The translations under genes were made by a program, and so were the position numbers. The notes beneath the pieces are model-generated. The model was not told where the DNA came from. It saw nothing but the letters and a program-made list of their open reading frames with translations, and searched no databases. From Geodia barretti (lineage: Eukaryota): a stretch of 18,732 bases of DNA. The DNA lies in NCBI GenBank assembly GCA_030341885.1, contig CASHTH010004028.1, positions 1 through 18,732 of the forward strand. The letters run 5' to 3'. Shown here piece after piece: positions 1-16,955 of this stretch (position 1 is its first letter; the number at the start of each line of letters is the position of its first letter).

Positions 1-58
1 CAATGATCAAGGTAGTGGCACCGCAGATGGTCCAGAGAGTGGTCGACAGAGCCATGCA
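1..58 (+). CDS. Acyl-CoA dehydrogenase family (ACAD10/11-like), penultimate coding exon, partial at window edge (...MIKVVAPQMVQRVVDRAMQ)
   Basis: Open frame runs to a GTATGT donor at 59. The peptide resembles the conserved ACAD helix that precedes the C-terminal GG.G motif. Confidence 0.55.
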
Positions 59-391
59 GGTATGTACTATAGGCAGTTTCTGTATATTATACAGTTGGTG
101 ACTTAAGCGAGCCCATAGTCATCTGAAATCTGCATGAATACGGCACTCTCTGTGCTTTGAATTTTGCCCTCTCTGTATTTGCCAATGGAAGAGAACCCAC
201 ACCTCTAGTTGCACCATCTTTTTTATCAGAAGCTGCGGTGCTTTCCATACGTAAATTGCTCACACATACGTAAATTGCTCGGCAATAATGTATTGCATTT
301 GTTATATATAGTAGCAGTTCTCCGTGTTAGGTTCTAAAGGTGGGCTATATAACTACATATCCCTCCCTCCTTCCCTCTTCCCCTTATATAG

Positions 392-535
392 GCTCATGGA
401 GCAATGGGCCTGTCCGGAGACAGACCCCTTGCCCAGTTCTTCTCCTTGGCCCGCATCCTGAGGCTGGCCGACGGACCAGACGAGGTGCACGCGGCGGCAC
501 TGGGAAAGATGGAGATAAAGAAGAACCAGAGATAG
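392..535 (+). CDS. ACAD10/11-like terminal exon: [47 protein letters not shown]
   Basis: A polypyrimidine tract and AG acceptor at 390-391 precede a phase-0 ORF ending in TAG at 533-535. The C-terminal ACAD motif (G.G...[17 protein letters not shown]) is recognisable. The 340..585 ORF on the track is the wrong frame. Confidence 0.65.
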
Positions 536-623
536 AGTGGACAACAATAGCGCGCATGTGTATATACTTTAGCGCATGTGTTTAAAAATTTGACCTTTGA
601 ACCACACCACGTGTGCGAAGAGA
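536..623 (+). promoter_or_regulatory. 88-bp gap between ACAD stop and NLE1 start; holds a duplicated TAGCGC(GC)ATGTGT motif; ACAD 3' end and NLE1 promoter/5'UTR must overlap here
   Basis: Two copies (tagcgcgcatgtgtat / tagcgcatgtgttt) at about 551-585 followed by TTTAAAAATTT. No canonical AATAAA is present. Confidence 0.35.
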
Positions 624-764
624 ATGGAAGCGGGCGAGGATGAGAAGCGAGTTTTGGCTCAGTTCAAGAGCGAGGACGGCGTGTTGGTGGGCACGCCGTT
701 CGACCTCCCTCTGGGTGTCACCAAAGACTCCCTGGCGGCTCTGTGCACCGCCGTCCTAGAAAAC
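624..764 (+). CDS. NLE1: Notchless (NLE1) exon 1: MEAGEDEKRVLAQFKSEDGVLVGTPFDLPLGVTKDSLAALCTAVLEN (Nle domain)
   Basis: ATG follows an in-frame TGA at 591. Strong similarity to the NLE N-terminal domain of Notchless. GTGAGT donor at 765. Confidence 0.85.
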
Positions 765-969
765 GTGAGTCGTACAAACTCACTAGCTCGCTCTTGTTTG
801 CTCGTTGGCGAAGAGGCGCTAGCTGTTGACTGATGGTAACATTAACGGTACTACCGTGTTGTGTGATACATCATGCAGCAGTCGATGTCATGGTGATGTC
901 GTCACATCACGTGACCCCCACCATACACCCATACATTGAGGCTGCACGAGCGTGTATTGATGCCTTTAG

Positions 970-1141
970 GATGATGAGACGGTGTATGAGTTCTACGTGC
1001 ACGAGCTGGAGGTGCGGGAGAGTCTGGCTGAGGTGTTGGAGAGGGGCAGTGGAGGGACGGAGAGGTTGGTGGAGATTGTCTACCAGCCTCAGGCCAGGTT
1101 CAGAGTCCAGTCCATCACCCACTGTACCAGCAGCATACCAG
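970..1141 (+). CDS. NLE1: NLE1 exon 2: DDETVYEFYVHELEVRESLAEVLERGSGGTERLVEIVYQPQARFRVQSITHCTSSIP(G)
   Basis: TTTAG acceptor and GTAGGC donor. Phase is consistent with exon 1. Matches the conserved IIYQPQA.FRV..V..C motif. Confidence 0.85.
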
Positions 1142-1282
1142 GTAGGCATAGCTAGTATCATACCTATGAAGTGGGGTCTCATGTGGTCTCTAGTGTAAAG
1201 GTATAAATGAAGTGAACTGGAGGTATATAGTCAGTGGGTTGAATTTTTTCAATGAGTTGTACTGACTTTTGTGTGTTCTTAG

Positions 1283-1328
1283 GTCATTCGGAGGCTGTGA
1301 TTGCTGTTCAGTTTAGTCCTGATGGACG
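1283..1328 (+). CDS. NLE1: NLE1 exon 3: (G)HSEAVIAVQFSPDG(R)
   Basis: TCTTAG acceptor, GTAAGT donor, phase consistent with exon 2. Start of WD repeat 1. Confidence 0.8.
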
Positions 1329-1536
1329 GTAAGTGAGGTTATAGTGACATCATCAATCTCCACAAATATAATTCTCCTGTGTATGGTATGGGGGATGGAG
1401 AGCTGAATGGGGAGGGAGAGACTAGGAGGAATGGGAGGAATAAAAAGACAAAAAGAGGGAGGGAGTGGTGTATATAAAGGGGGCAGAGAAAGAAGGAACG
1501 GAAGAGAAATAGAGAGAGAGATGTTTGTGTCCCCAG

Positions 1537-1697
1537 GTCTCTTGCCAGTGGGCTCTGGAGACCACAACGGCTGAGACTGTGGGACATATTCACCGAGACC
1601 CCCACTGCACACCTGCAAGGCCCACAAACACTGGATACTGTGCATTGCGTGGTCGCCGGACGGGAAGAGACTGGACTCTGGCTGCAAGAATGGACAG
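1537..1697 (+). CDS. NLE1: NLE1 exon 4 (WD repeat): conserved ...PLHTCKAHKHWILCIAWSPDGKRLDSGCKNGQ is readable only in a frame different from the entry frame; internal frameshift(s)
   Basis: Entry frame from exon 3 gives SLASGLWRPQRLRLWDIFTETP. The conserved SGSGDTTVRLWD and HTCKAHKHW blocks need about three 1-nt C deletions plus a 1-nt change in the CCCCCA run at about 1600-1605. Confidence 0.6.
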
Positions 1698-1974
1698 GTC
1701 GGTTTCCCATCTTCAGTAGATGTGGTGAGGTTGTATATATATTGATCGTATAACTAGTAGAATTTTCGCCAAATATCAGCCGCATGCCCTTTGCCAATAG
1801 CCCACCAGCCTTACTAGGTTTCCATAACGTTTTTCGCAGCACTTGTTTTAAAAAATTTTTTTACATGTGTGTGTACGGTAATCCTAATATTAAATTTTTT
1901 GTGGGTGGCGATTATATGGACAATCTCCAAATTTAGTCTCTGTGAAAATGTTTTTTGTGTGTGTGTGTCTTCAG

Positions 1975-2073
1975 GGTGTGTGTGTGGGAGGCAGAGACAG
2001 GGAGACAGGTGGGACACACCTCTCTCGGTCACAAACAGTGGATCACCTCTCTCGCCTGGCAGCCCCTTCATTT
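1975..2073 (+). CDS. NLE1: NLE1 exon 5: VCVWEAETGRQVGHTSLGHKQWITSLAWQPLH(L)
   Basis: CTTCAG acceptor inside a (TG)n tract; GTGAGT donor. Conserved KWIT.L.W.PLH motif. Phase against both neighbours is off by one. Confidence 0.6.
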
Positions 2074-2089
2074 GTGAGTCTATTATATA

Positions 2090-2575
2090 CCTTCACTGGG
2101 TAGTAGAGCATTGCATGGGAGAGTGTTGGAGTATGCCTGCTTTACATTAGTGCTGACAGGGCACGGACAGACTAGTAGAGCATTGGAGTGTTGGAGTATG
2201 CCTGCTTTACATTAGTGCTGACAGGGCACGGACAGACTAGGTATGAGTCATTGAGTGTTGGAGGTATGCCTGCTTGTAATCTATTAGTGCTGACAGGGCA
2301 CGGACAGACTAGTAGAGCATTGAGTGTTGGAGTATGCCTGCTTTACATTAGTGCTGACAGGCACAGACATAGACTAGTAGCAGCATTGCATGTGGGAGGG
2401 TGTTGGATACCATTAGTGCTGACAGGGCATGGACAGGACTAGTAGAGCATTGCCATTGGGAGGGTGTTGGATACATTAGTGCTGACAGGGCACGGACAGA
2501 CTAGTAGAGCGATTGCATTGGGAGGGTGTTGGATACATTAGTGCTGACAGGGCACAGACAGCTATGCATTGAGAT
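2090..2575. repeat. Intronic minisatellite, about 7.5 copies of a 63-65 bp unit (GCTGACAGGGCACGGACAGACTAGTAGAGCATTG.AGTGTTGGAGTATGCCTGCTTTACATTAGT)
   Basis: Direct tandem copies with point and indel variants, in NLE1 intron 5. Confidence 0.9.
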
Positions 2576-2736
2576 GTACCAAAAACAGACCAACCACAAC
2601 TTGAGTTCTAATGGAGACCGAAGACGGTACATATATAGCATGTTGCAATGTGAATAGCGTTGTGCCTGCAAGTTCACACATAGCAGATATATTTGGCTTG
2701 TACTATAATATGGCTCATGTTGCTCAATCTTTCCAG

Positions 2737-2773
2737 GGACCATCTTGTAGACTGCTGGCCAGTGCGCTCAAAG
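2737..2773 (+). CDS. NLE1: NLE1 exon 6: GPSCRLLASA(S)K; conserved SKDG continuity needs a 1-nt deletion near 2768
   Basis: TTTCCAG acceptor, AAG|GTACGT donor. Matches human .PECRYVASSSKDG. Confidence 0.55.
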
Positions 2774-2842
2774 GTACGTATACTTGCTGTGAGCAATTTT
2801 TAGATCACATGACGCATCATGTGATTGTTGTTGCCATGACAG

Positions 2843-2998
2843 GATGCGACAGTGAGGATATGGGACGTGGTGCTGTGTAAGGCGGTGATGGTCCTCTCTG
2901 GCCACACCCAGTCTGTGACGGGCATTAAATGGGGTGGGGAGGGACTCGTCTACACGGCTTCACAAGATAGGACCATCAAAGTGTGGAGGACAAAAGAT
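2843..2998 (+). CDS. NLE1: NLE1 exon 7: DATVRIWDVVLCKAVMVLSGHTQSVTGIKWGGEGLVYTASQDRTIKVWRTKD
   Basis: 52 clean codons from acceptor AG (2841-2842) to donor GTGAGT (2999). Near-identical to the human WD3/4 region. Confidence 0.85.
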
Positions 2999-3267
2999 GT
3001 GAGTTTGTGTGTTTATACGTACCACTAGTTAGTTTAAGAAAGTACTAAAGTCTGTATAATTATAATTATATTATGTTGCCTGACTCTCTTCTCATTTCCA
3101 TGTAGCGGGTTATTCGTCCTGTTTAATTAATGTCTATTCTACGTATAGATAAACAGAAGACAGATATTAGTGGCTCGATATTCACATGCACCTGGACACA
3201 CGGCATAAAATCGGGAAAAACTAAATCTCCTCTTTCTCCTTACTCTGCCTCACTCTTCCCACGCCAG

Positions 3268-3407
3268 GGATGTCTCTGTCGCAGTCTCCAAGGTCACGGT
3301 CACTGGGTCAACACCATGGCTCTCAGCACCGACTACTCTCTCAGAACAGCTGCATTTGACCCCGGCGACCCCGACCCTCCAACACACGGGAGTCCAGAAA
3401 ATGGGCC
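3268..3407 (+). CDS. NLE1: NLE1 exon 8: GCLCRSLQGHGHWVNTMALSTDYSLRTAAFDPGDPDPPTHGSPENG(P)
   Basis: CGCCAG acceptor, GTAAGT donor at 3408. Conserved QGHGHWVNTMALSTDY block. Ends in phase 2, which does not fit exon 9. Confidence 0.7.
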
Positions 3408-3506
3408 GTAAGTATTCTGCAGCTATGAGTTCTCATGGGTTAACTGTGGTTTGCTAAGTGGGGGGGTGTTTTTAATTTTTAATGAGGTTTTTTTCTTTCA
3501 TTTCAG

Positions 3507-3547
3507 AGCTCCAGAGAAGGGCCCTTGTTAGATACGAGGCAGCTAAG
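3507..3547 (+). CDS. NLE1: NLE1 exon 9: (Q)LQRRALVRYEAAK
   Basis: TTTCAG acceptor, GTAATG donor. Matches human LQELKERALSRYNLV. Its frame needs a single base from exon 8. Confidence 0.55.
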
Positions 3548-3756
3548 GTAATGTGTTCATCCATAGAATAACACCACACTGCCGGACTATACACATTTGA
3601 GGGTTGAATATACACACAATCTCTGTCACTGTCACATCTCTAGCTATGTCCATTTTGCCCCTCTCCCTCGCCCACTTCCCCATGTGGTGCATGTGGTTTT
3701 TCTCACTGAGTTTGTTTGTTAGATGTGAGGTAGAAAACTAGGTGTTGGAGGTGTGT

Positions 3757-3778
3757 GTGTGTGTGTGTGCATGCAGGA
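3757..3778. repeat. (GT)11 microsatellite directly next to the NLE1 exon-10 acceptor
   Basis: gtgtgtgtgtgtgtgtgtgtgc followed by atgcag|GAAGG. Confidence 0.9.
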
Positions 3779-3885
3779 AGGCAGTGGAGGGAGAGAGGTG
3801 TTGGTTGTCTGGTTCAGATGATTTCACTCTCTTTCTCTGGAACCCATCCAGAACCACGCACAGCAGAACACATTGCCAGAGGACC
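3777..3885 (+). CDS. NLE1: NLE1 exon 10: (K)AVEGERCWLSGSDDFTLFLWNPS...; the 3' part changes frame (conserved ..IAR.TG is in a +1 frame); exon end uncertain
   Basis: Acceptor CATGCAG comes straight after (GT)11. The SGSDDFTLFLWNP block is clear. Neither candidate donor (ACC|GTGATG at 3886, GAT|GTACTA at 3909) gives the G phase that exon 11 needs. Confidence 0.5.
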
Positions 3886-3959
3886 GTGATGAGAGATGTA
3901 CTACAGTCTATATCGAGCCAGACGCATGGTCCTGCCCACACTCCACCTTTCAATGTCCC

Positions 3960-4500
3960 CAAGGTGTCCCTTACTCAGAGTTTAACCACCGAATATAAGG
4001 GTCACCTCTGAATAAAGGAAACATTTGGTGTCCCTTATTCAGAGTTTAACCACCAAATATAAGGGTCACCTCTGAATAAAGGAAACATTTGGTGTCCCTT
4101 ATTCAGAGTTTAACCACCAAATATAAGGGTCACCTCTGAATACAGGAAACATTGAGTGTCCCTTATTCAGCAGTTTAACACCATGTAATAGGTCCCTCTG
4201 ATGAAGGAACATGTGGTGTCCCTTATTGCAGAGTTTTAAGCCACGCGAAATATAAGGGTACACCTCTGATAAAGGCACAGTATGGTGTCCCTTATTCCAG
4301 AGTTTACCAAAAGAAAGACCGAATATACGGGTCCCTCTGATAAAGGAAGCTTTGGTGTCCCTTATTCCGATACTCACCAAGATAAGGGTCACCTCTGAAT
4401 AAAGGAAACATTTGGTGTCCCTAGGTGTCCCTTACTCAAATATAAGGGTCACCTCTGAATAAAGGAAACATTTGTTGTCCCTAGGTGTCCCTTACTCAAA
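3960..4500. repeat. Intronic minisatellite, about 8-9 degenerate copies of a roughly 64-bp unit with internal palindromes (GGTGTCCCTTATTCAGAG-TTTAACCACCAAAT-ATAAGGGTCACCTCTGAATAAAGG-AAACATTT)
   Basis: Tandem copies decaying toward 4500. Each unit holds GGTGTCCCTTAT / ATAAGGGTCACC and TTATTCAGAG / CTCTGAATAA inverted pairs. In NLE1 intron 10. Confidence 0.85.
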
Positions 4501-4548
4501 GGATTCACTGACACCCAATTCTCCTACCAAAACGTGTATTATGCACAG

Positions 4549-4654
4549 GTCACCAGCAGCTAATCAACCAAGTGCTGTTCTCACCGAATGCCAGACTCAT
4601 AGCCAGTGCCTCCTTCGACAAGTCCATCAAACTATGGGACGGGAGAACCGGCAA
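4549..4654 (+). CDS. NLE1: NLE1 exon 11: (G)HQQLINQVLFSPNARLIASASFDKSIKLWDGRTG(K)
   Basis: CACAG acceptor, GTGAGA donor. 34 clean codons, near-identical to human HQALINQVLFSPDSRIVASASFDKSIKLWDGRTGK. Confidence 0.85.
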
Positions 4655-4930
4655 GTGAGATAAACCGAGCATTACTATAAGGAATGCAAAGCATTTTCGG
4701 CGAGTGAAAGTGAGAGTGTGAAATTTCCACTATTCGTGACAGTGAAATGGATATCCAGCATTCAGATGACTATGTGTACACCCGTTTCACTTGTGAAAGC
4801 AGAAAACGGCATCGTCCATTGTCAGCGGGCTTTACCAAGGGGTGGCCGGGTTTGTTACAACTGACCGTACCTACTTGTTAACCTTTAAACTGCAACTCTG
4901 AAACTAAAGCCCATAATTGTACATGATGCA

Positions 4931-5168
4931 ACTTTTTTTGTAAGACGAAGTTCATTGTGAGTGGATTGAAGCCTAGCCTATATTACCACATGGGTTCGAT
5001 TAGCATGTCTCAACAACTTGGTAACGAGGTAGAAAGGCAAGTCAAGGCAAACAAGTCAACTACACCCAGGACAGCTCAAAGAAAAGAAGAAGAGCTGCCC
5101 TGGGTGGGATTGGAACCCACCACACTCTGCAGTCTAGGCGAGCACTCTACCAACTGAGCTACCAGGGC
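4931..5168 (-). mobile_element. Candidate tRNA-derived SINE: 73-nt tRNA-like head (5096-5168), about 160-nt body, A-rich tail (T7 on + strand at 4933-4939)
   Basis: Minus-strand GCCCTGGTAGCTCAGTTGGTAGAGTG...GTGGGTTCCAATCCCACCCAGGGCA. Acceptor, D and T arms are perfect. The anticodon stem is disrupted. In NLE1 intron 11. Confidence 0.35.
5096..5168 (-). pseudogene. tRNA-like sequence with degenerate anticodon arm (tRNA pseudogene or SINE head), nominal anticodon AGA
   Basis: 7-bp acceptor stem GCCCTGG/CCAGGGC. D arm GCTC-AGTTGGTA-GAGT. T arm GTGGG-TTCCAAT-CCCAC. Anticodon stem CTCGC/GCAGA pairs only 3 of 5. Position 37 is a pyrimidine. Confidence 0.5.
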
Positions 5169-5211
5169 AACTCAGCTCATGTCTCTCTAATGGTGTACGT
5201 ATTACTGTTAG

Positions 5212-5371
5212 ATACGTGGCCAGTCTGCGAGGCCACGTGAGTGCAGTCTATCAGATCTCGTGGTCAGCTGACAGCCGACTCGTCTGCAGCGGGAGCTCCG
5301 ACAGCACTCTCAAAGTCTGGGACATCAAGACCCGCTCCCTCCTCACCGACCTTCCCGGACATGCAGACGAG
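5212..5371 (+). CDS. NLE1: NLE1 exon 12: (K)YVASLRGHVSAVYQISWSADSRLVCSGSSDSTLKVWDIKTRSLLTDLPGHADE
   Basis: TGTTAG acceptor, GTATAT donor. Phase consistent with exon 11. Strong WD7 conservation. Confidence 0.85.
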
Positions 5372-5430
5372 GTATATAACCCTCTCACCTGATTGGTCGA
5401 TTAGCCAATGATGTCGTGATGATGTCGTAG

Positions 5431-5501
5431 GTATTTGCAGTGGATTGGAGTCCGGACGGGGAGAGAGTGGCAAGTGGTGGGAGAGACAGAGTACTGAAGT
5501 T
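5431..5501 (+). CDS. NLE1: NLE1 exon 13: VFAVDWSPDGERVASGGRDRVLKL
   Basis: GTCGTAG acceptor, GTAAGT donor, phase consistent. Confidence 0.85.
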
Positions 5502-5563
5502 GTAAGTCCACAACTGGCGACGTTGTGTGTATTGGTGATGATCTTACGAATCTTTCTCTACAG

Positions 5564-5576
5564 ATGGAGACGGTGA
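5564..5576 (+). CDS. NLE1: NLE1 terminal exon: (L)WRR*
   Basis: TCTACAG acceptor. Ends ...KLWRR* as human ends ...RIWRR*. TGA at 5574-5576. Confidence 0.8.
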
Positions 5577-5654
5577 AATGGTATTATTGTTGATAGGGAT
5601 CAAAGCGACTAAAGCACGACCAGAACATTTTATAAACACACCCTTAAGGTCCAT

Positions 5655-6695
5655 TTTTTGTGCAGTATACTCATGCCATCCATCATGGTACTGGTGGCTA
5701 CTGGTGGAAAGGTACATATTGTCAGTATACCCATGCCATCCATCATGGTACTGGTGGCTACTGGTGGAAAGGTACATATTGTCAGTATACTCATGCCATC
5801 CATCATGGTACTGGTGGCTACTGGTGGAAAGGTACATATTGTCAGTATACCCATGCCATCCATCATGGTACTGGTGGCTACTGGTGGAAAGGTACATATT
5901 GTCAGTATACTCATGCCATCCATCATGGTACTGGTGGCTACTGGTGGAAAGGTACATATTGTCAGTATACCCATGCCATCCATCATGGCTACTGGTGGCT
6001 ACTGGTGGAAAGGTACATATTGTCAGTATACCCATGCCATCCATCATGGCTACTGGTGGCTACTGGTGGAAAGGTACATATTGTCAGTATACCCATGCCA
6101 TCCATCATGGCTACTGGTGGCTACTGGTGGAAAGGTACATATTGTCAGTATACCCATGCCATCCATCATGGTACTGGTGGCTACTGGTGGAAAGGTACAT
6201 ATTGTCAGTATACTCATGCCATCCATCATGGTACTGGTGGCTACTGGTGGAAAGGTACATATTGTCAGTATACCCATGCCATCCATCATGGTACTGGTGG
6301 CTACTGGTGGAAAGGTACATATTGTCAGTATACTCATGCCATCCATCATGGTACTGGTGGCTACTGGTGGAAAGGTACATATTGTCAGTATACCCATGCC
6401 ATCCATCATGGTACTGGTGGCTACTGGTGGAAAGGTACATATTGTCAGTATACCCATGCCATCCATCATGGCTACTGGTGGCTACTGGTGGAAAGGTACA
6501 TATTGTCAGTATACTCATGCCATCCATCATGGTACTGGTGGCTACTGGTGGAAAGGTACATATTGTCAGTATACCCATGCCATCCATCATGGTACTGGTG
6601 GCTACTGGTGGAAAGGTACATATTGTCAGTATACTCATGCCATCCATCATGGTACTGGTGGCTACTGGTGGAAAGGTACATATTGTCAGTATGAT
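5655..6695. repeat. Minisatellite, about 17 copies of a 60-bp unit (TACYCATGCCATCCATCATGGTACTGGTGGCTACTGGTGGAAAGGTACATATTGTCAGTA) with an alternating T/C variant (120-bp higher-order repeat) and a few 61-bp variant units
   Basis: Near-perfect direct repeats. The track ORFs 5578..6813, 5658..6728, 5660..6694 and the minus-strand ORFs are artefacts of the repeat. Lies between the convergent 3' ends of NLE1 and NUDT9. Confidence 0.95.
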
Positions 6696-6992
6696 AACCA
6701 GCCCTTTGCATGTATATATACATCGTGAGGTTCAACGCCAATTTGATGCCCACTTGACCTCTCGCATTTCACGTGATGCTGCTTTCCATGCGAAGTTAAT
6801 TCCATGCTCGTAGTAGTTAAGTATCCCTTCCAAAAAATAAATTCAGATCACTTTTGCCAAATAAGAGAACAGGCCACACGGCACTATCCAGTGACAGCCG
6901 TTTATAAAAAAGGAAAAACTAGGTATATAGGCTTGCTTTGCATGCCACTAGGGTGTAGTTTACAAATAGGCCAAGTCTAGTGTCCCGCTGTG

Positions 6993-7138
6993 CTACCAGG
7001 CGGCTTTCCGGTGCTCCACAGCGAGGCGGACGAAGTGGGAGTGGCTGGCGTAGAGACTGAGACCAGAGTGGACCTCCGTCCACGCCACGGCAGCCGCGTC
7101 GTCCCCGGCAACCAGATTCAGCTTACTGAAACCCTCAC
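6993..7138 (-). CDS. NUDT9: NUDT9-like exon 7 (terminal): (G)EGFSKLNLVAGDDAAAVAWTEVHSGLSLYASHSHFVRLAVEHRKAAW*
   Basis: GATGTAG acceptor at 7139-7141 (- strand); stop TAG at 6993-6995. Matches human NUDT9 ...[48 protein letters not shown]. Confidence 0.8.
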
Positions 7139-7498
7139 CTACATCATCATCATATGTAGTGTGTGTTTCCACACCTCAATCCCCAATGTACATATATACA
7201 AAGGCCAGGGAGAGAGATTGTCTGTCATTGAACTCGGGCATTATCAGTGACTGGGTATTATGCATTGAGTTACAACTCAGAACAAAAATTGACCTTCGTT
7301 CCCTGTATGATTGCTAAGTAAAGTATATATAGCACTATCAGCATGTGAACATAATCAAACTGTAGCTTACATGCTTATCAGCAAAAACAGAGATATGGGG
7401 CATGTTTATTAATCTGTCCCCAAATATCAATCACGTCTTGTGTAAACAGCAGTGGGTGCAGTAATGACTGGTTTGTGTAGATATAATATATATCTGAC

Positions 7499-7583
7499 CT
7501 GAGTCGTCATGAAAGTTAAAGACAACTGTCTCCATCCAGGCATTGTCTGTGTTCCGAGGATCATCGACATACCCTGCATACAA
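7499..7583 (-). CDS. NUDT9: NUDT9-like exon 6: [28 protein letters not shown](G)
   Basis: TGCGTAG acceptor, CAG|GTCAGA donor. Matches human [27 protein letters not shown]. Confidence 0.8.
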
Positions 7584-7733
7584 CTACGCACATTGGGGAG
7601 GCAAATAGTAAAATAGCGTATTCACAGACTCAAACTGGCATCTTGAAGGAAAATATTCGTGCTACATAGCAATTTCACACAGGATGACGAGCCTAGTATG
7701 TAAAAATGTCTCCCACAAGAATGTGATTCATGC

Positions 7734-7877
7734 CTTGTCTCCAGACTTGAAGAGGTGGTTGATGTGCTCTTCAATCTTTCTCTTCTCCTCGTCCGTGGCC
7801 TCGAGGGAGTTGAGCGCTTCTTCTCCAAACTCCTTCTTGAGTGTGGCCGACACCGTGTCTCCTGCCTCCACCATTCC
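7734..7877 (-). CDS. NUDT9: NUDT9-like exon 5 (Nudix box): [48 protein letters not shown]
   Basis: CCCTCCAG acceptor. Donor is AAG|GCATGA (GC-AG intron). Matches human [43 protein letters not shown]. Confidence 0.8.
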
Positions 7878-8089
7878 CTGGAGGGAGGGGCTCAGACTGT
7901 AAGGTAAATCAACTGATACACATTTAGGCCCAAAATTCAAATCCTTTCGCTGCTGTATATTTCGAATTTACTAACACGTAACACAGATGTAAAACAATGC
8001 AAAAGCCCACCTGACTTCCTGTGGGCCCCTAAGAGTTTTAATTCACACACAGCTCTCCTTCTCTATCATTTTGTGGTAGTGCAACTTAC

Positions 8090-8195
8090 TCCAGGGATAG
8101 CCCAGGCTCCAGTGTCTCCTCTTCTGACAGCCACAAACTCCAACACTGGCTTTCCCTCTCTCTCCACTCTAGCTCCACTCCCATCTCTCTTCCAC
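8090..8195 (-). CDS. NUDT9: NUDT9-like exon 4: (R)WKRDGSGARVEREGKPVLEFVAVRRGDTGAWAIPG
   Basis: GTGCAG acceptor, GGA|GTAAGT donor. Matches human [37 protein letters not shown]. Confidence 0.8.
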
Positions 8196-8360
8196 CTGCA
8201 CAGAGAGTGACACTGTAAACAGGCCAACAACTACTGTATAGTATTTTTATTCAAATTTCCTTTCCAAGTGAGTTCCTAAACAGGATTGTGCTTTATTCAT
8301 TCTTGCATGTGTATGCACCTGGATAATAGTTAGTTGTATTAAAATCTTTTGTGAACTCAC

Positions 8361-8447
8361 CTGGTGACGACAGGGTCAGCTGCATGATTGGGTCCCCACC
8401 TCCCGAGCAGACCCCTCCCGATCATCCCTGTCCGACCCACTGGGTTC
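8361..8447 (-). CDS. NUDT9: NUDT9-like exon 3: (R)[28 protein letters not shown](R)
   Basis: CCTGCAG acceptor, GTGAGT donor. Matches human [30 protein letters not shown]. Confidence 0.85.
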
Positions 8448-8590
8448 CTGCAGGCACAACGGGACAGAGAGGGAGGGAGAAGAGAGGTAGGGAACAGTTC
8501 TTCTAGAGAGGTGTGGGGGGGGGGCAAGGGGCCAATTTCCCCCCATAAATTTTGCCCCCTGGGCTCAAAATGAAGTGGTAGTAGTGATAC

Positions 8591-8695
8591 CTGGGGACTT
8601 TGTCCATTATCTGGTAGGTGCCCATGTGACTCTTTCTGTCCACTTTACCGTCCAATGAGTTGAACTGCAGCGGTTTTTCCGGCTCCTCCTCCTTC
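8591..8695 (-). CDS. NUDT9: NUDT9-like exon 2: (R)[34 protein letters not shown](R)
   Basis: ATTTGCAG acceptor, CAG|GTATCA donor. Phase consistent with exons 1 and 3. Confidence 0.75.
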
Positions 8696-8816
8696 CTGCA
8701 AATATACACAGAGCTTGTGTGAATACAACAGATTTTGAGGAAAAACAAATGTGGGATGTGGTTGTTTTGCTCCTAATTGTAACAAAAATGATTGACTGCT
8801 ATGCCTCATTAGAGAC

Positions 8817-8992
8817 CTGATGTCGGGGTCTGCCCAAACGGGACGGGAGAGGACGCGAGGTGCCGTGTAGTCCACGGGGTGGTATCCGGGGTAGTCCACG
8901 GACCAGGGGGTCTTGTCTTCCGGCACGGGGAACCGCCGGACGCCGCCCAGGTACTCCAGGGGCTGCCTGTGAGTCGTGAAAGTAGTCGCCAT
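8817..8992 (-). CDS. NUDT9: NUDT9-like exon 1: MATTFTTHRQPLEYLGGVRRFPVPEDKTPWSVDYPGYHPVDYTAPRVLSRPVWADPDI(R)
   Basis: ATG at 8990-8992 (- strand); GTCTCT donor. Matches human ...[25 protein letters not shown]. There is no long N-terminal presequence before the conserved core. Confidence 0.8.
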
Positions 8993-9214
8993 CCTTCGGA
9001 GCCACGATATCCCAGCTGTAGCAGCGGCCAGCTCTCGAAATCAGCACAGCAAATCCTGTGTCCCCGTGTGTTGCACTCAGCTACACCCTTAGATTGAGCC
9101 CCGCCCAGCTGCGCATGCGTATGCGGAATTGGCGACGGCCCGGATCGATGACGGTCAATCGAGAGCCGGTGACTAATTCTCCTTGTGCGATTGGGCAGGA
9201 AAATCCTGATCAGT
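8993..9214. promoter_or_regulatory. CpG-rich bidirectional promoter between NUDT9 (-) and an unknown + gene. Contains CTGCGCATGCGTATGCG (NRF1/ewg-like GCGCATGCG core) at about 9108-9124
   Basis: 222 bp between the divergent start codons. High CpG density runs from about 8820 to 9200. Confidence 0.55.
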
Positions 9215-9280
9215 ATGTCTGTGGCGCAGCAGTTGAAAGACCTGAGAAGCGATGTGCGGACGCTTCTGGACTACGCACAA
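9215..9280 (+). CDS. Unknown coiled-coil protein, exon 1: MSVAQQLKDLRSDVRTLLDYAQ
   Basis: ATG in a Kozak-like context (cagtATGt) just downstream of the CpG-island promoter. Phase-0 GTATGT donor at 9281. Confidence 0.55.
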
Positions 9281-9343
9281 GTATGTAGCAAGCTAACGGA
9301 ATTTCTAGCTAGCTATACACGATGTTTACCGTCGGCCGTCTAG

Positions 9344-9424
9344 GCGCTGAAGGCCGAAAACGAACGTTTGCGAGGTGCTTTTAGAGGTTCATTCGTCTTT
9401 CTCAGGAATAAAGAACAAGAGAAG
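9344..9424 (+). CDS. Unknown gene, candidate exon 2: ALKAENERLR... (short form ends at 9374 on G|GTGC; long form ends at 9424 on AAG|GTGCGC)
   Basis: CGTCTAG acceptor. In-frame continuation of the exon-1 heptad-like sequence. Which donor is used cannot be settled from sequence. Confidence 0.35.
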
Positions 9425-9800
9425 GTGCGCAGTATTCGTGCAACTCTGTATTGTAATGTGAGATCTATAATCCGACAGGTTTTCAGAGCTGTCACGGAAG
9501 TTGGTGCTGCGTTTCCAAAGCTCAAGACAGTCCCCGACATTTCCCTTACCCACAGCAAAGCAACAGTGAGCTTACCCTACGCAATTCTATGCAAGTTATT
9601 TTCTTGTTATTTTCACTTTGGCATGGTAGCTACTATAGTCTAGCTCGTACTATAGAGTCTAGTCGACTGTGTAGTAAGTTACTAATCTGGCAGTGTATTG
9701 TGTTGTGTATTACATCAGCAACGATTAACCACCTTGCAGCATGTGACACACAGAGAGCTTGTGAGTGTGACTGTATTTCCCTCATCCCTCCCCTCAATAG

Positions 9801-10042
9801 AGCCATCATCTACCGAATGCCTCTGAAGGATTCACAGAGGAAGCAGCAGGTCTCCTGAATGGGGAGAATGAAGCTGGGAGAGAAGTGGGGAATGATGAAG
9901 CTCATAATGAAGGGAGTATTCTGAAACCTCAGTTATTCACTACAAGTGACTTAGCAGATGCACTACTGGAGCACAATAAGCTGTTGGGCAGACTTCGACA
10001 GTACACTATCTCCAGCAGTAACACCTCAATACCTACCTCCAG
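9801..10042 (+). CDS. Unknown gene, candidate exon: two alternative readings. Short: AIIYRMPLKDSQRKQQ to donor 9850. Long: SHHLPNASEGFTEEAAGLLNGENEAGREVGNDEAHNEGSILKPQLFTTSDLADALLEHNKLLGRLRQYTISSSNTSIPTS to donor 10043
   Basis: Strong CCCTCCCCTCAATAG acceptor. An 80-codon open frame to GTAATT. Only the short reading is phase-compatible with the downstream exon chain. Confidence 0.35.
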
Positions 10043-10510
10043 GTAATTTAAAAGCTGCACAACTAACATCTCCTTCTCACCTTAACAATTGATAGCCTAA
10101 GGACATAGGAGGAAGGACAGGCCAAGCAATGATTCTGAATGCATTCCCTGTAGCTGGAGAGTGCAATGCTTATTAAGCCCTCAGAATGGGGTTGCCTTAT
10201 AAGTTTGTGATAAGTGTACATAAACTCTTATTTAAGCGGGGTAATATTGGCTCCAATGGCCAATTTCTGTTTTTGGACATACTGTTGATGGTTGGTGGGT
10301 GATCCCGTTGAGTAAACTCTGAATGTCCCACTCAAGATAATTTTATTGTTGTTGTTATTAGACTCATGTAAACAGCTCTCCAAACATCGGAGAGCATGAT
10401 CTGACAGGAGCCGGTGTGGTTGGCTTTAGGGAACAACAAAACATGAATGTAAGCAGTGTATTTTGTGGCATTATTATTGCAGGATATCGATTACTTTCCT
10501 CCGTTTACAG

Positions 10511-10591
10511 GATTTTGCCGTTCATGTCAGTTGGTCAAATGAAAGTAGCTTTGAAATCTACCGAAATTACCTCGATTTCTTCACACTGCAG
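10511..10591 (+). CDS. Unknown gene exon: DFAVHVSWSNESSFEIYRNYLDFFTLQ
   Basis: CCGTTTACAG acceptor, CAG|GTGTGT donor, phase 0 at both ends. Phase-consistent chain with the next two exons. Confidence 0.5.
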
Positions 10592-10663
10592 GTGTGTACA
10601 GCAAAGAGTTGAAGAACAGATTTTGACTACTAATGTGTTTTTGTTGTTCTCTACAATGTATAG

Positions 10664-10715
10664 GCAAGATTAAGGGAATTAGGGGTACAAAAAACAAGAA
10701 CTCCGGAACTTCCAT
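10664..10715 (+). CDS. Unknown gene exon: ARLRELGVQKTRTPELP
   Basis: AATGTATAG acceptor, CAT|GTACGT donor. Phase consistent with both flanking exons. Confidence 0.5.
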
Positions 10716-10774
10716 GTACGTTTACAATAAGCATATTAATGATTTTTCACTTTGCTCTCTGCTTTATGTAATAG

Positions 10775-10863
10775 TATCGGATCATCTTCTGGCAGTGTTG
10801 GGTCAACTCAGCTCTACTGAGTCACTGTACCATCGATACAAGTTGGTCGATTCATTTTGCAAA
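10775..10863 (+). CDS. Unknown gene exon: (L)SDHLLAVLGQLSSTESLYHRYKLVDSFCK
   Basis: GTAATAG acceptor, AAA|GTAAGA donor. Read through unspliced, it would stop at 10887. Confidence 0.45.
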
Positions 10864-11635
10864 GTAAGACTTCACACGATACAGTAGGTCCAACCACAAT
10901 CCAATCCTTTTTACCATCGGCTATTATTTCACAAGCACTGGTGTAAGTATGTTATTAAGTGTGTGATCTGACACAGTGCAATAGAAGTGTCTCAGGTGCC
11001 TGTAGAAATAACTATTTTCCCCTTTTGTGTAGGCATTGCTGGCAGTGTAAAGGGAAAGGAAGTTGGAGATGTTGGCAGGACTTCTGTACTGATCTTCTTT
11101 GTTCCCGTCTCCGAGACATACAAATAGAAACGTTAGCAGCTTTATTGCAACCCTTTCGTTTTCATTACACAATATTTATACACACACACACAACAGTACC
11201 AGGCTGGACAGTAGCTACAGTTTTGAAGCAGAAGGTAAGCAAAACCTGTCGGGGAAAGTCGTACCTTTGCTGCTGATAAACAACCTTCAAACGCTTCTCA
11301 TAGTTGTTTGTTCTTAAGTTTGTTTCTGTATGATAATAGGAGAGAGTGACTTGGACAGTGAAGACTGCTTGGCTTCCTGTCTTCAGTGTGCTCTTGCTCA
11401 CGACAGAAGTGGTACAACACACACAGCGGTAGGTTTTCACTTTCACCGAGGTAACTAGTAAACTCCTGAGGAATAGTAATCTTTACCCATGAGGCGTGTG
11501 ATATACTATCGAGCTTTCCTTTCTACAATATGGTTTATCCGTGCATTATGCTGCCAAGGACATCTGTGTAGCATCTGAAGTAGTTTTTATAGTATGTTTT
11601 TTCTGTGTATTCCATAAGGAAATGTAATAAGCAAT

Positions 11636-11656
11636 ATATATATATATATTATATAC
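11636..11656. repeat. (TA)n microsatellite inside an AT-rich tract
   Basis: atatatatatatatatta. Confidence 0.85.
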
Positions 11657-11722
11657 ATGAGCAATAGTAGTATATATAAATTATTATAATTATATTATGT
11701 TGACTGTTACATCTGTGTATAG

Positions 11723-11926
11723 CAGACCGGTTGGATGCTCGGAAACGGACCAACCAGAGAAGCCGAGAGCGAGAAAGGCAGACCTCAGATTCACAAGCCG
11801 TCCCTCGCACATCCTGTCCTCACCCACATGCACTCTGCACCCACGACACACCCAGTAGCCGTTACCCCATCGCGATCAAACACCGAAACTCCCCATTCTG
11901 AAGACCTCCTCTTCTCTCGACAGTGA
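11723..11926 (+). CDS. Candidate terminal exon, possibly of the 9215 gene: QTGWMLGNGPTREAESEKGRPQIHKPSLAHPVLTHMHSAPTTHPVAVTPSRSNTETPHSEDLLFSRQ* (S/T/P/H-rich, low complexity)
   Basis: TGTGTATAG acceptor. 68-codon phase-0 ORF ending in TGA at 11924-11926. Confidence 0.3.
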   Translation, partial: QTGWMLGNGPTREAESEKGRPQIHKPSLAHPVLTHMHSAPTTHPVAVTPSRSNTETPHSEDLLFSRQ

Positions 11927-12663
11927 ACCCACTACGGTCCGCGTCAGGGAGCCGACGGCGGGGAAGTGTGGCCGGCTGATTTCAGACATCGTTCCTCAAA
12001 TATTCTCAGTGGAGGAGAGGGAGAGCTCTCACTAGAGTCAAAGCCCTCTGTGTGAAGAGTGGCAACATGGACTGGGGGGTAAGTTCCACCCCAGATATAT
12101 GAGAGCCTCCATCTATATTGGCTCTCCGTGCCAGTGCTATAATTATCATGGTTCTATTGTCGGATGTGTGTTAGATTAATTAAATGGGGTACACAAGCTA
12201 GTCTGTCGACCCATTCAAGTAATAGTGGGGACTGTCTGAAAATAATACTCGGGCCCATAGACTACGCACCTAGAGCAATGGGACGGAGCCATACATGCTG
12301 GTGTCAGGAAACGTTGCTCGATGAGAATGACATTTACAGGTACGGGAGACCTCAGCTGGCCACGCGAACCAGAAAAATAGCCGGAAGATGGAAGAGAACA
12401 AAACACTAGCACAGATGGCGGAGAAAGAACTTTCGATGTCAAACAGTTGATTTATCCTCATTGGAGCCTCAACTTGATTTCAACTCAGAAATTTTTTATC
12501 CGTTTTTGCACTATTGCTGCAGATATCAAATCAAAATATTTCCCACACAGTAGTACACACGGTGGCATACAACGTGTAAGAAAAATTCACAAGAGTTCAA
12601 AAAACTAAGTAAGTCTAAAATCTGCTACTATTGTTCCCACTGTCCACCAGACTGCACGAATAG

Positions 12664-12828
12664 CTATCTGTGTATTATAGCCTGTAGGAATAGGAGGTGG
12701 AAGGATTGGCAGGGGGCGGGGCCTCGAGAGCTCCGATAAGCCCCGTGGGCGGTGTTGAAGAGGTTAATGGGACTTGATCCGTCTGTTATCAGAGTGGACT
12801 TGAGCCCCAGACTCTTTAGCAGCTTCAC
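12664..12828 (-). CDS. MVP: MVP terminal exon: [54 protein letters not shown]
   Basis: CTTTCACAG acceptor. Matches human [34 protein letters not shown]. Stop TAG at 12664-12666 (- strand). Confidence 0.85.
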
Positions 12829-12895
12829 CTGTGAAAGAACGGCAACCCTGAGTGAAAACACAGCTTCCCGAAGATATTGCGGCAAAGTATACATA

Positions 12896-13013
12896 ATGTG
12901 AGGGGGCATGGGAAAAGGGACCTATATGGCTGGAATGTGAAAATGTTAACCACAAAAACTTAATTTTCACATTCCAGCCATATAGGTCCCTTTTCCCATG
13001 CCCCCCTCACATA
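12896..13013. repeat. 118-bp near-perfect inverted repeat (49-bp arms, about 19-bp loop): candidate MITE or foldback hairpin in the last MVP intron
   Basis: ATGTGAGGGGGCATGGGAAAAGGGACCTATATGGCTGGAATGTGAAAAT ... ATTTTCACATTCCAGCCATATAGGTCCCTTTTCCCATGCCCCCCTCACAT. The arms differ only by a C5/C6 run. Confidence 0.8.
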
Positions 13014-13311
13014 CATTTTGGACCCTTACTCAGTAGTTGGTTGCTAAATCACTAACATTTTCACTGAGCATAATGATCTTTATACACTTTGGGACCTTTG
13101 TACATGGTGCTACGTCTAACTATCTGGGGCTAAATAGACCACCACATGATCAGCACATTCGTGGGTAAGTATAGTTTTGCGTGTGATCAGGCGGACAATG
13201 TACAACAGTTCTCAATAGCTATTGTATGTACGTACGTCAGGCAAAGAGTGAAGTAGGGTAGTTGTAGAGGAAGGTTGAGGTGTTATGTATACTCGTGTAC
13301 TGTTTAAATAC

Positions 13312-13502
13312 CTGCCATCTCAGGGCCGGCAGTGGCAATAGCCTGAATGGTCTGCGAGCCAATGGCATCGACCATGTCCTTGAATTTATGTGTCCGATGG
13401 TCGCCATGTCCCTGGCCCTTGGCAATCTCGAGGGTCGTTCTGCTCCCTTACAAACTTTGTCTCTGCCTCCCGCGCACCCGACAACCTCTCCAGCTCTGAT
13501 TC
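13312..13502 (-). CDS. MVP: MVP exon (cap-helix region): ESELERLSGAREAETKFVREQND / LEIAKGQGHGDHRTHKFKDMVDAIGSQTIQAIATAGPEM(Q); two apparent 1-nt frame breaks
   Basis: The N-terminal half reads in one frame and the conserved KFK.M.EAIG....AGPEMQ half in the +1 frame (break near 13425-13430). The exon ends GAG ATG GCA G|GT, but exon M needs phase 0. Confidence 0.6.
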
Positions 13503-13774
13503 CTGTGAGAGTAATATTATACAACAATTAGTGGTAGTAGTCGCACGAATAAGGCTGGGGTCACAATACACATCGCATTGCCCTGTCAGCGCCTTGCAGC
13601 TTTTGCTGCACCGAGAGGATAGTTTCTAATCTCCGCAGCACAACGTGATGCAGCACAGTGCGATGGGGCGATGCAACATACCCAGCCTAAACTCTTATCA
13701 TAATACTTATATAGCCCATGCAAATTTCAACGTCTCTAAGTTGGAACTGATTCCGAGGGTTTCACTGTACCTAC

Positions 13775-14018
13775 CGCCTCAATCTGCTGGCTTGGGCCTT
13801 CAGTTTGGCCTGTTCTACTGCAGCCTGTCCCTCGATCTTGGCAGCCTCTGCTCGTGACTGGGCCTCAGCCTTGGCCTGTCCCGTCGACTCAACTGCCGCA
13901 CTGTTGGCCTGCAGCTCCAGGAGCCTCCTTGCGTGCTCTTTCTGCCTCAGCCTCGTCCGTGATCTTCTGTCGCTCCAGAGCTCCCTTGGCCTTCTGCTCC
14001 AGCCTCTCTGCCTCGTGT
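13775..14018 (-). CDS. MVP: MVP exon: (R)[31 protein letters not shown] / [45 protein letters not shown]...; internal 1-nt frame break
   Basis: Conserved ARKELLELQA.S.AVESTG.AKAEA.SRAEAA.IEG. The frame shifts by one at AAGGAG[G]CTCCTG (+ strand about 13923-13926). The last about 15 nt are in yet another frame before the GCG|GTAGGT donor. Confidence 0.6.
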
Positions 14019-14337
14019 CTGGAATGTATGGAGTAGCATATTATTCACATGTATAGCTACAGTCTCTCTCTCCCTCCATAGTATCATCTACATGTGTAGC
14101 TACACATCTCTCTTTCACTTCTCTATTGTAGTGGGTTGTCAGTTTTTGTGTTCCAGGATGAAGATGGGTTTTCTTTTCCCTAGGTTTTGTTCTTACACGT
14201 GTTTTTTCAGAATTCAAAGACTGGTAGTTTACACGTACATAGGTAGTGTGCACTTATTATTCGTAATTGTGTGACGGTTGGACGTAATACAGTACATACA
14301 CACATACACAACTGTATACTTTGAACAAACTTTTGAA

Positions 14338-14384
14338 TACACACACACACACACACACACACACACGGCGCGCGCGCGCACACC
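14338..14384. repeat. Compound (CA)n(GC)n microsatellite forming the 5' splice site of the MVP intron on the - strand
   Basis: + strand cacacacacacacacacacacacacacggcgcgcgcgcgcacacc|tggcag. The - strand reads ACTGCCAG|GTGTGCGCGCGCGCGCCGTGTGTG... Confidence 0.9.
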
Positions 14385-14595
14385 TGGCAGTGGCCTCCTG
14401 GGAGTTGGTTGTGATCTCAATGGCCAATTGCACTGACTTCTGCAGAGCATCCCTAGTCCTCTGATCGACTGGCTCTGCCGACTGGATGTCGATGCTGGTT
14501 ATCACGAGGCAGTTGGCAGGGAAGGCGAAGCGATCGCGGACCTTTCCCTTATCGTCTATACCAAAAACAGAGGCACGAATGATCTTTGCCGAGTT
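14384..14595 (-). CDS. MVP: MVP exon: [70 protein letters not shown](R)
   Basis: CACAG acceptor, CAG|GTGTGC donor. Matches human NSARIIRTAVFGFE...[37 protein letters not shown]. Confidence 0.85.
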
Positions 14596-14788
14596 CTGTG
14601 CGGAGGGTAGGATTGGAGGAGAGAGAATTAGACAGTTAGCCAGCAGATATATATATACAGACTTATTCATGAGTCAAACCTCCGAAAAAGGACTCTTCCA
14701 GTTAAGGACGCCTATCCATAAGGCACACCAGGTCATGCCTTATTATTGACTACACACGCACACACACACTCCACTTCCTATATTATAC

Positions 14789-14933
14789 CTTGTGAAAGTC
14801 GTCAAACTGGACCCCAGCCACAGCTCCTCTGATCCTAGAGGCAATGGCTTTGCAGGCGTCACCGACAAAGTCTGGCACCGAGAAAATCTTGGACGCCTCC
14901 TTCTCGCTCCCCTTGTCTGCCACCTCAAAATGC
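14789..14933 (-). CDS. MVP: MVP exon: (W)[48 protein letters not shown]
   Basis: TTTCCAG acceptor, AAG|GTATAA donor. Matches human [49 protein letters not shown]. Confidence 0.85.
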
Positions 14934-15068
14934 CTGGAAACGGTTCAGATTTACGGAATGAAAAGTGAAAAGCAATGCTCTAACGCTCTAGAGCAATAGT
15001 CATATGAATTCTAGGGCCATGTTGTGCTGAGGTCGAATGAATTCAAAGCGGTATCTCCCTCCACTCAC

Positions 15069-15372
15069 CAGTTGTAGGACAGTTGCAGAGAGAGTCTGGC
15101 GTGGTCCGAGGTCTCAATGGTGATGATGTCGGTACAGAAGTCGGGCCCCAAGAGGAGGCAGAGGGCCTTGATGACATTGGGCTTCTTGGGTTTCCCGCCG
15201 GAGAGAGACAGCTGAGTGAACTGCTCGTCCGGCTCCAGCATGACGAGGTCGGGCCCGAACATGACACGTGCCGTCTTCTGTTTGTAGTCGTAGATCTGCA
15301 CGGCGGCGTTGTGCGGGACTCGGAAGGTGATGACCCTCGTTTTGTCTCTCTTTGTAGAGACTGCTGCCCGAG
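15069..15372 (-). CDS. MVP: MVP exon: ..[100 protein letters not shown](W)
   Basis: Strong match to human ...[90 protein letters not shown]. The 5' phase is off by one against the upstream exon. Donor is TG|GTGAGT. Confidence 0.75.
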
Positions 15373-15659
15373 CTGTGTTGTGGGGACAGTCAAGTGGTAG
15401 AGTAAGGAACTAAGGTTGCTAGTGGTTACAGTTAGCCGTGTACGTCAACAGTGCAGCCCTTCGTATCTGGACACCAAAGTATTCATTATTAGAGAGGGGC
15501 CCTTATTCAGAAATTCATGCAAAAAATTAACTGTTCTTTGGGAAAAAGGTGTCCCCCTTATTGGAGAGTTGTCCTCATTTCAGGAGTGCCCTTTGAAAAG
15601 GGTTTCAACTGTCAGTCAAAGGTTTCTTCTCCTCTCCCTTCCCCCTCCCTCTCGCTCAC

Positions 15660-15788
15660 ATCTATCGGAGCGGTCAGCGAGGGGTCTTTGGCCTGAGAGA
15701 GGAGATCTTCAACGGCCGGTGGAAGATGCTTCTCCCACAGTTCCTCGTCCTGGGTCAGCATGTACGTCGAACCACACACAGACCTCAC
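15660..15788 (-). CDS. MVP: MVP exon: [43 protein letters not shown]
   Basis: GACAG acceptor, GAT|GTGAGC donor. Matches human [44 protein letters not shown]. Confidence 0.85.
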
Positions 15789-16057
15789 CTGTCACGTAGA
15801 GAATGAGTGACTTTAGCAACTTGCACCCAGAGCCTCACAAATAGTTAAGATTTGCTTGTGTCTGTCTGTCTTACCATATTGAGTAACAAACTCCCCACTT
15901 CAGGCACATGTAGTATACAGAACATGTACGACAGTGAAACCTCTGAAAAGGACCCTCTGATAAAGGATAGTTATACACTTGGCCTGCCTCTACTTGATTA
16001 CTTCCGAGGGTAATGATGTCGTTCCAAAACTTCACATCTCACAAAAGTTTGATGTAC

Positions 16058-16207
16058 CTTTCCAGTCTTGATGTCCCTGGCGTATATTCCTTCGTTTTCG
16101 TCGAGAGGAATGGCCTTTTGCTTGGTGACCACCTCAACCTCTACCGAGGGGACGTACTCCTGGGGCCCTCTGATCATCCAGCGATCGCCCGGCTGGCGAG
16201 ACGCTCC
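16058..16207 (-). CDS. MVP: MVP exon: [50 protein letters not shown]
   Basis: TTTCCAG acceptor, AAG|GTACAT donor. Matches human [48 protein letters not shown]. Confidence 0.9.
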
Positions 16208-16536
16208 CTGGAAAGAAGGAGAGAGAGATAATAGTTTATCCAATGAGAGAGGAAGAGAAGGGAGATATAACTGTGCAGAGCCAGGGCCTGGCAGGGCTGA
16301 TTATGAATGCAAAGCATGGCTCGAATTGCAGCTGTTAGCAATATAGCAACCCACTTCTGAGAGAAAACAGGAGTGCGAAATTTCGTGGATTTACAAATAT
16401 GTAAAGCATTGAGGGCACCAATAGTTATAGAAAACTGCGCAATTGAGATGAGTAGGTGGACTCGCTTGGTGCAGGAAGTGGAGCATGTGCCTGGAATGCA
16501 GGCAATTAACTATTGTTCCCTCTGTGCCTAGCTCAC

Positions 16537-16773
16537 AGTGTCAGGGTCGGTATGCTCCTCAATGGCCTTCATAATGAGCCCCTCATCCTCCCCTAGAACA
16601 TAGACATTCTGAATTCCCTTCTCCAGTCTCTCGCCGGGCTCCAGGAAGAACGACTTCTCTCCCTTCACCAGCTTCCTCTGGCCCAGCTGGGGTTTCCCGT
16701 CGCTGCCTACAGGGTCCAGGATGACGCAATACTGCCGGTTGGTCAGTGTGGTGATGTTGGTCACACCTACTAC
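16537..16773 (-). CDS. MVP: MVP exon: [79 protein letters not shown]
   Basis: ATACAG acceptor, ACT|GTGAGC donor, 79 clean codons. Matches human ...[60 protein letters not shown]. Confidence 0.9.
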
Positions 16774-16774
16774 C

Positions 16775-16895: not shown

Positions 16896-16955
16896 GGGCA
16901 CATAAGAATGGTGACAAAGGGGATGAAAGAAGAAAGAAGAGAGAGAAGTAGCCAC

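Follow-up and report, generated by a model that had tools for sequence, protein, structure and literature searches.

NLE1 (Notchless homolog 1), or Rsa4, is an essential factor of 60S ribosome biogenesis, and, judging from its homologues, the protein considered here would act in pre-60S maturation through the binding of its NLE domain to the MIDAS domain of Rea1/MDN1. Frameshifts and false pseudogenes arising from consensus errors in long-read sequence are a documented problem (PMC12007338), and PMC8445201 describes apparent frameshifts that disappear in a better assembly. The NLE1 locus discussed below lies in an 18,732-nucleotide stretch of Geodia barretti contig CASHTH010004028.1 (assembly GCA_030341885.1), hereafter the window, which is eukaryotic DNA with spliceosomal introns. 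An earlier note, made from the sequence alone, had described the Notchless reading frame in this window as broken by single-base lesions and had offered two explanations, either that the copy is an unprocessed pseudogene of very recent origin or that indel errors cluster in this part of the assembly. Our analysis argues for the second and against the first, because the same locus is intact in independent same-species assemblies and because the differences are overwhelmingly indels that affect introns and a second gene alike. The broken frame is very probably an artefact of assembly consisting of patches of erroneous consensus, and what the organism carries is almost certainly an ordinary Notchless/Rsa4 orthologue of 479 residues, intact and at a single locus. 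Placed by spliced alignment, the gene lies in the window as follows.

625-5576, plus strand: NLE1 (Notchless homolog 1 / Rsa4), 14 exons, with the ATG at 625 and the stop codon at 5574-5576
625-764, 970-1141, 1283-1328, 1537-1697, 1975-2073, 2737-2773, 2843-2998, plus strand: NLE1 exons 1-7
3268-3407, 3507-3547, 3777-~3887, 4549-4654, 5212-5371, 5431-5501, 5564-5576, plus strand: NLE1 exons 8-14, with the stop codon in exon 14

The identification of the gene as Notchless was correct. Its exon structure is that of the intact gene of a congener (14 exons, all introns GT-AG, 479 residues), and the product obtained after indel repair also has 479 residues. The N-terminal NLE domain (PF08154, NUC135, ubiquitin-like; residues 10-70) scores 44.7 bits against a cut-off of 23.4 and is encoded by exons 1-2, where no repair is needed, and the C-terminal WD40 repeats (PF00400) of the repaired protein reach 232 bits in six stretches. 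Residues 5-479 of the repaired protein align as one stretch with residues 12-485 of human NLE1 (chain NJ of the pre-60S structure 8fl0; E = 2e-214), and the match to yeast Rsa4 (3jct) has E = 3e-137. All descriptively named proteins among the top 120 matches are notchless protein homolog 1. The repaired protein shows 62-70% identity to NLE1 of other metazoans, the closest named proteins belonging to two sponges, Oscarella lobularis (67%) and Corticium candelabrum (65%); the full-length search returned no same-species protein, its best match being 70% identical.

To read the frame, we used a purpose-written, GeneWise-like dynamic programming (DP) alignment whose states cover codons, frameshifts, and phase-aware GT/GC-AG introns, with the congener NLE1 protein as query, that is, a frameshift-aware protein-to-genome alignment of the kind that the earlier note had proposed. 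The bases quoted in that note, gggCtctggagacCacaacggCtgag and others, are present in the window as given, and its observation that the frame is unreadable through exons 4-10 without indel correction was borne out: eight frameshift steps were needed between 1550 and 3807, and the 3' end of exon 10 was not aligned as exon, a spurious micro-exon being placed at 4405-4424 instead. The same alignment with identical settings required no frameshift at any of three control loci (L001, L002, and L004, introduced below). When frameshifts were forbidden, the best model lost 254 score units, invented two micro-exons, used a GC donor, contained an in-frame stop codon, and exchanged SLASGSGDTTV, RLWDIFTET, DPSCRLLASASK, and GGSGGREVLV for unrelated residues. 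Because this best model has a stop and loses invariant blocks, no re-placement of splice sites rescues the open reading frame (ORF); a continuous frame by way of better splice sites, which the earlier note had named as the outcome that would overturn it, was thus sought and not obtained.

The evidence that decides between the two explanations comes from comparison contigs, found in ENA metagenome assemblies by matching the genomic ORF expected from a clean exon 4, intron read-through included; the matched metagenome contigs that carry the locus are evidently host DNA. Contig L002 (ERZ6104056 NODE_20172) is 4.9 kb long and has a SPAdes-style name and a coverage of 4. It is collinear with positions 1-3797 of the window, including the 3' exon of an upstream acyl-CoA-dehydrogenase-like gene and intergenic DNA, and reads NLE1 exons 1-9 with no frameshift under the same DP settings. 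Contig L006, of 802 bp and from another sample, spans window positions 3145-3942 and reads NLE1 exons 8-10 intact. Every NLE1 exon compared in this way (exons 1-10) is intact in the same-species contigs. A further contig, L007, stems from the same assembly as L002 and aligns to window positions 7773-12999; since the 115-residue first-exon ORF of NUDT9 in the window, intron read-through included, is found exactly on L007, the assembly containing L002 and L007 holds the same species. The congener is represented by two haplotypes, L001 and L004 (ERZ28669063 ctg10662 and ctg24291), which are syntenic with and ~83% identical to the window, share with it the gene order acyl-CoA-dehydrogenase-like gene, NLE1, NUDT9, and each encode the full 479-residue NLE1 with no frameshift and 13 GT-AG introns. 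These two haplotypes diverge from each other by 3-7%, and their non-coding DNA is set apart by many multi-base indels, which points to very high heterozygosity in the lineage; the NLE1 exons of the two are separated by 13 substitutions and by no indel.

Base-level alignment to the same-species contigs L002 and L006 and to the congener contig L001 allowed the lesions to be placed individually. In exons 4-8 and at 3805 the same-species contigs and the congener share one reading, from which the window departs; the tail of exon 10, where L001 aligns ambiguously, was placed from L006 and peptide P0152.

1553-1603, plus strand: exon 4 lesions, an extra C at 1553, 1562, and 1571 and one in the C-run 1599-1603, absent from L002 and L001
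1974-2025, plus strand: exon 5 lesions, a surplus G at the acceptor (1974/1975), one base lost at 2020 and one gained at 2025, with L002 and L001 agreeing against the window
2740-2766, plus strand: exon 6 lesions, loss of a T at 2740 (GGA[T]CC) and gain of a G at 2766, from the base-level alignment
3373, plus strand: exon 8 lesion, one surplus G, which L002, L006, and L001 all lack
3805-3887, plus strand: exon 10 lesions, one extra base within 3805-3808 and a noisy tail at 3847-3887, from L006, P0152, and L001

The damage is therefore greater than the at least seven single-nucleotide lesions noted earlier, amounting to 18 indel events in the coding sequence of exons 4, 5, 6, 8, and 10, with none in exons 1-3, 7, and 9 by comparison with the same-species contigs; exons 11-14 are in frame and carry no indel relative to the congener. 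The description of the lesions as confined to the middle third of the gene holds for NLE1, whose exons 1-3, 7, 9, and 11-14 are free of indels, but not for the window, in which an exon of another gene (~11720-12080) is broken as well. In exon 4, where three extra C's and one extra A had been read, the surplus bases are four C's, the fourth being a C and not an A, and the exon without them reads SLASGSGDTTVRLWDIFTETPLHTCK. The phase mismatch at junction 4/5 is caused by the extra G at the acceptor, and exon 5 also holds a frame-neutral pair (-1 at 2020, +1 at 2025) that turns LS into SL. The cause of the mismatch at 5/6 is the missing T at 2740, which is distinct from the extra G at 2766. The apparent mismatch at 8/9 follows from the extra G at 3373, inside exon 8, and the lesion assigned to junction 9/10 belongs within exon 10, at 3805-3808. 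The 3' half of exon 10 is disrupted, as had been seen, not by a single nucleotide but by six insertion events, one deletion, and four mismatches within 40 nt (3847-3887). The true reading of the lesion region of exon 10 is WNPADSKKHIARMTG, and L006 and peptide P0152 read the exon as EGSGGREVLVSGSDDFTLFLWNPADSKKHIARMTG. Substitutions in exons 4-10 number ~10, half of them in the 40-nt tail of exon 10, and all conserved NLE1 blocks are kept after indel repair. If the consensus is indeed in error, the mRNA would read continuously through exons 3-11 as SGSGDTTVRLWD ... DPSCRLLASASK ... WNPADSKKHIARMTG. The codon at 1675 is GAC (Asp) in the window and GCC (Ala, in RLASGCKNG) in the same-species contigs, the congener contigs, and all homologues inspected.

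Beyond the exons, the differences from the same-species contigs are distributed in patches.

1541-2815, no strand: noisy patch A, which runs from exon 4 through exon 6 (with introns 4-5) into intron 6 and contains a 65-bp tandem array at 2121-2561, by comparison with L002
2816-3372, no strand: clean island with exon 7, intron 7, and most of exon 8, without any difference from L002 over 557 nt
3373-4500, no strand: noisy patch B, proven to 3942 by comparison with L002 and L006 and likely to continue through a 64-bp array at 3963-4482
11046-12741, no strand: noisy patch C, outside NLE1, by comparison with the same-species contig L007

Patch A carries 24 one-nucleotide indels and 15 mismatches relative to L002 over 815 comparable bases, and patch B, between 3373 and 3942, carries 16 and 15 relative to L002 and L006; its 3' limit probably lies at ~4500. 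The clean island between them is identical to L006 as well from 3145 on. Leaving out the array (2101-2560), the zone 1541-3942 thus holds 40 one-nucleotide indels and 30 mismatches relative to the same-species contigs, as compared with 6 and 25 in window positions 1-1540 (Fisher p = 5e-4) and with 12 and 65 between the two congener haplotypes (Fisher p = 1e-7). A similar situation is found 7 kb away, where positions 11001-12750 differ from L007 by 34 one-nucleotide indels, 17 mismatches, and 10 longer indels, against 6 one-nucleotide indels and 38 mismatches in positions 7773-11000. When patch C is pooled with the NLE1 zone, the noisy zones have 74 one-nucleotide indels and 47 mismatches and the clean zones 12 and 63 (p = 2.6e-10). 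Patch C breaks the exon at ~11720-12080 (plus strand) of a neighbouring gene starting near 9217, which is readable in the window only by frame hopping; it forms one open frame of 127 residues in L001 and L004, and the orthologous frame is open in L007. The patch consensus carries ~2-5% single-base insertions or deletions, at the same density in introns as in exons, involving all four bases and both signs, and with about half of them outside homopolymers. The edges of the patches are unrelated to gene structure, as illustrated by the 557-nt identical stretch between noisy ones and by the edge at ~11000, which falls inside another gene.

These features suggest how the patches may have come about. 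The window looks like a mosaic of accurate stretches and of low-depth single-molecule consensus, and its clean stretches match the independent, short-read-style assembly of the same species save for ordinary polymorphism. Both patches at NLE1 contain a tandem array, and copies within these arrays differ by indels at 8% (2121-2561, 65 bp x 6.8) and 12% (3963-4482, 64 bp x 8.1), whereas the arrays outside the patches (5658-6692, 16779-16902, and 18118-18191) show 0% indels between copies. The 65-mer is present in ~2 copies in L002 versus ~7 in the window, which fits a stretch that short reads fail to assemble; the array is either collapsed in L002 or polymorphic. The arrays may thus mark places beyond the reach of short-read assembly and polishing, where gap filling or failed polishing would have left a long-read consensus of low depth, with exons 4, 5, 6, 8, and 10 of NLE1 falling inside such patches by chance. 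The patchy rather than genome-wide occurrence of the errors likewise suggests gap filling or locally failed polishing. An attempt to name the sequencing platform from the insertion bias was dropped, since the insertion-to-deletion ratio of 26:14 in the NLE1 zone contrasts with 15:19 in patch C.

The main competitor to consensus error is that NLE1 is a true recent unprocessed pseudogene, or a null allele in the sequenced individual, with another allele or a paralogue supplying the function. In its favour, the given sequence does have a broken frame, heterozygosity in the lineage is high, as the 3-7% divergence of the congener haplotypes indicates, and one substitution strikes an invariant Ala (1675, RLASG to RLDSG). 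Against this stand two to three same-species contigs of independent origin, as well as the two congener haplotypes, in all of which the locus is intact; all the disabling changes are absent from L002 and L006, which come from other individuals. Neutral decay would moreover predict mostly substitutions, whereas the coding sequence here has 18 indels versus ~10 substitutions; one-nucleotide indels exceed mismatches in the adjacent introns too; the lesions cease sharply for 557 nt within the gene and reappear 7 kb off in a second gene, and are thus not gene-specific; and all conserved blocks are still there once the indels are repaired. We therefore consider a pseudogene or null allele improbable. 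A slightly less probable variant still is that the indels are real, the animal being a highly heterozygous and possibly clonal marine invertebrate in which one haplotype was regionally mutated by indels, with NLE1 and its neighbour inactivated and the other haplotype intact; a null allele of this sort needs a process that makes almost only one-nucleotide indels, patchwise, across exons, introns, and two genes, while conspecifics remain intact. Collapsed heterozygous haplotypes were also entertained as a source of the indels and were rejected for the coding lesions, natural haplotypes showing no exon indels.

Two other readings would leave the bases as they stand. Misplaced splice sites, alternative exons, or non-canonical introns might restore the ORF of an NLE1 that is intact as written, an idea to which the position of several lesions at or near exon borders (1974/1975, 2740, and ~3885) lends some appeal; it is refuted by the frameshift-free optimum, with its loss of 254 score units, in-frame stop, and four missing invariant blocks, and by the four lesions in the middle of exon 4, so that its probability is very close to nil. 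Marginally lower yet is the probability that the bases are right and that the frame is restored by RNA insertion/deletion editing or programmed frameshifting. The four extra bases of exon 4 are all C, and nothing else speaks for recoding, whereas genomic DNA of the same species lacks the extra bases, so that no recoding is needed in those individuals, the introns are equally dense in indels, and the indels are of all four bases and both signs.

Several points nevertheless weigh against consensus error. The comparison contigs have ~4x coverage and stem from other individuals, with ~1-2% substitutions relative to the window; the insertion bias differs between the zones, and the spectrum fits no single platform. 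The origin from long reads or gap filling is suggested by the error spectrum rather than by raw reads or by the assembly method. No same-species sequence turned up for window positions 3943-7772 or beyond 13000. Owing to the first of these gaps, the 3' boundary of patch B is provisional, and exons 11-14 are clean as judged by their frame and the congener only. Exact look-ups of the NLE1 exon 12 ORF, ORF 10633-10887, and ORF 12664-12909 gave no match, the exon 10 peptide led by cluster look-up only to an unrelated member, and no same-species transcript was found.

The remainder of the window provides the setting of the gene.

380-535, plus strand: 3' exon of the acyl-CoA-dehydrogenase-like gene, with APH and Acyl-CoA_dh domains upstream in L001
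7000-9000, minus strand: NUDT9, with PF25969 (NUDT9_N) on its first-exon ORF
13300-18500, minus strand: gene taken for major vault protein (MVP) in the earlier note, whose label this is

In line with the earlier description of NUDT9 as sound, its region shows no indel excess. Directly downstream of the NLE1 stop codon, the 60-bp array at 5658-6692 has 17.2 copies with 98% matches, 0% indels, and a C/T position that alternates between copies, and window positions 5719-6733 do not align to the congener contigs. Within NLE1 intron 11, ARAGORN calls a tRNA-Ser(AGA) of 76 nt at 5094-5169 (minus strand). Ser tRNAs normally have a long variable arm, for which 76 nt is short, and the call may represent a tRNA-derived element; positions 5012-5177 have no counterpart in the congener intron. 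An inverted repeat with perfect 43-nt arms and a spacer of 18 nt lies at 12902-13005, inside which L007 ends, and may be a hairpin resembling a miniature inverted-repeat transposable element or an assembly break point.

The broken frame carries no biological weight, since a normal Notchless is almost certainly present in the organism, and its importance lies with the assembly. At least three patches with 2-5% single-base indels occur in 18.7 kb, and two examined genes, NLE1 and the gene near 9217, are hit. Wherever exons meet such patches, this assembly will yield wrong gene models, wrong pseudogene calls, and wrong conclusions about gene loss, and polishing is required before it is used for annotation or comparison.

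Compared with the NLE1/Rsa4 family, the repaired product of the window shows nothing notable, with colinearity over its full length, the NLE domain, and the WD40 repeats all in place. The window copy departs from other NLE1 sequences by Asp for an otherwise invariant Ala (1675) and by SL for LS (2020/2025), both inside noisy patch A, and these may also be sequence errors. Like an unprocessed pseudogene, duplicated or unitary, it keeps the full intron-exon structure and carries multiple frameshifts; unlike one, it has no excess of substitutions and no relaxed constraint, its lesions extend beyond the gene, and the conspecific locus is intact. The closer likeness is to insufficiently polished long-read or gap-filled assemblies, with differences that are rich in indels, poor in substitutions, fragment ORFs, affect coding and non-coding DNA, and are patchy around repeats, although, unlike in a general failure of polishing, the errors of the window are confined to patches and are not genome-wide.

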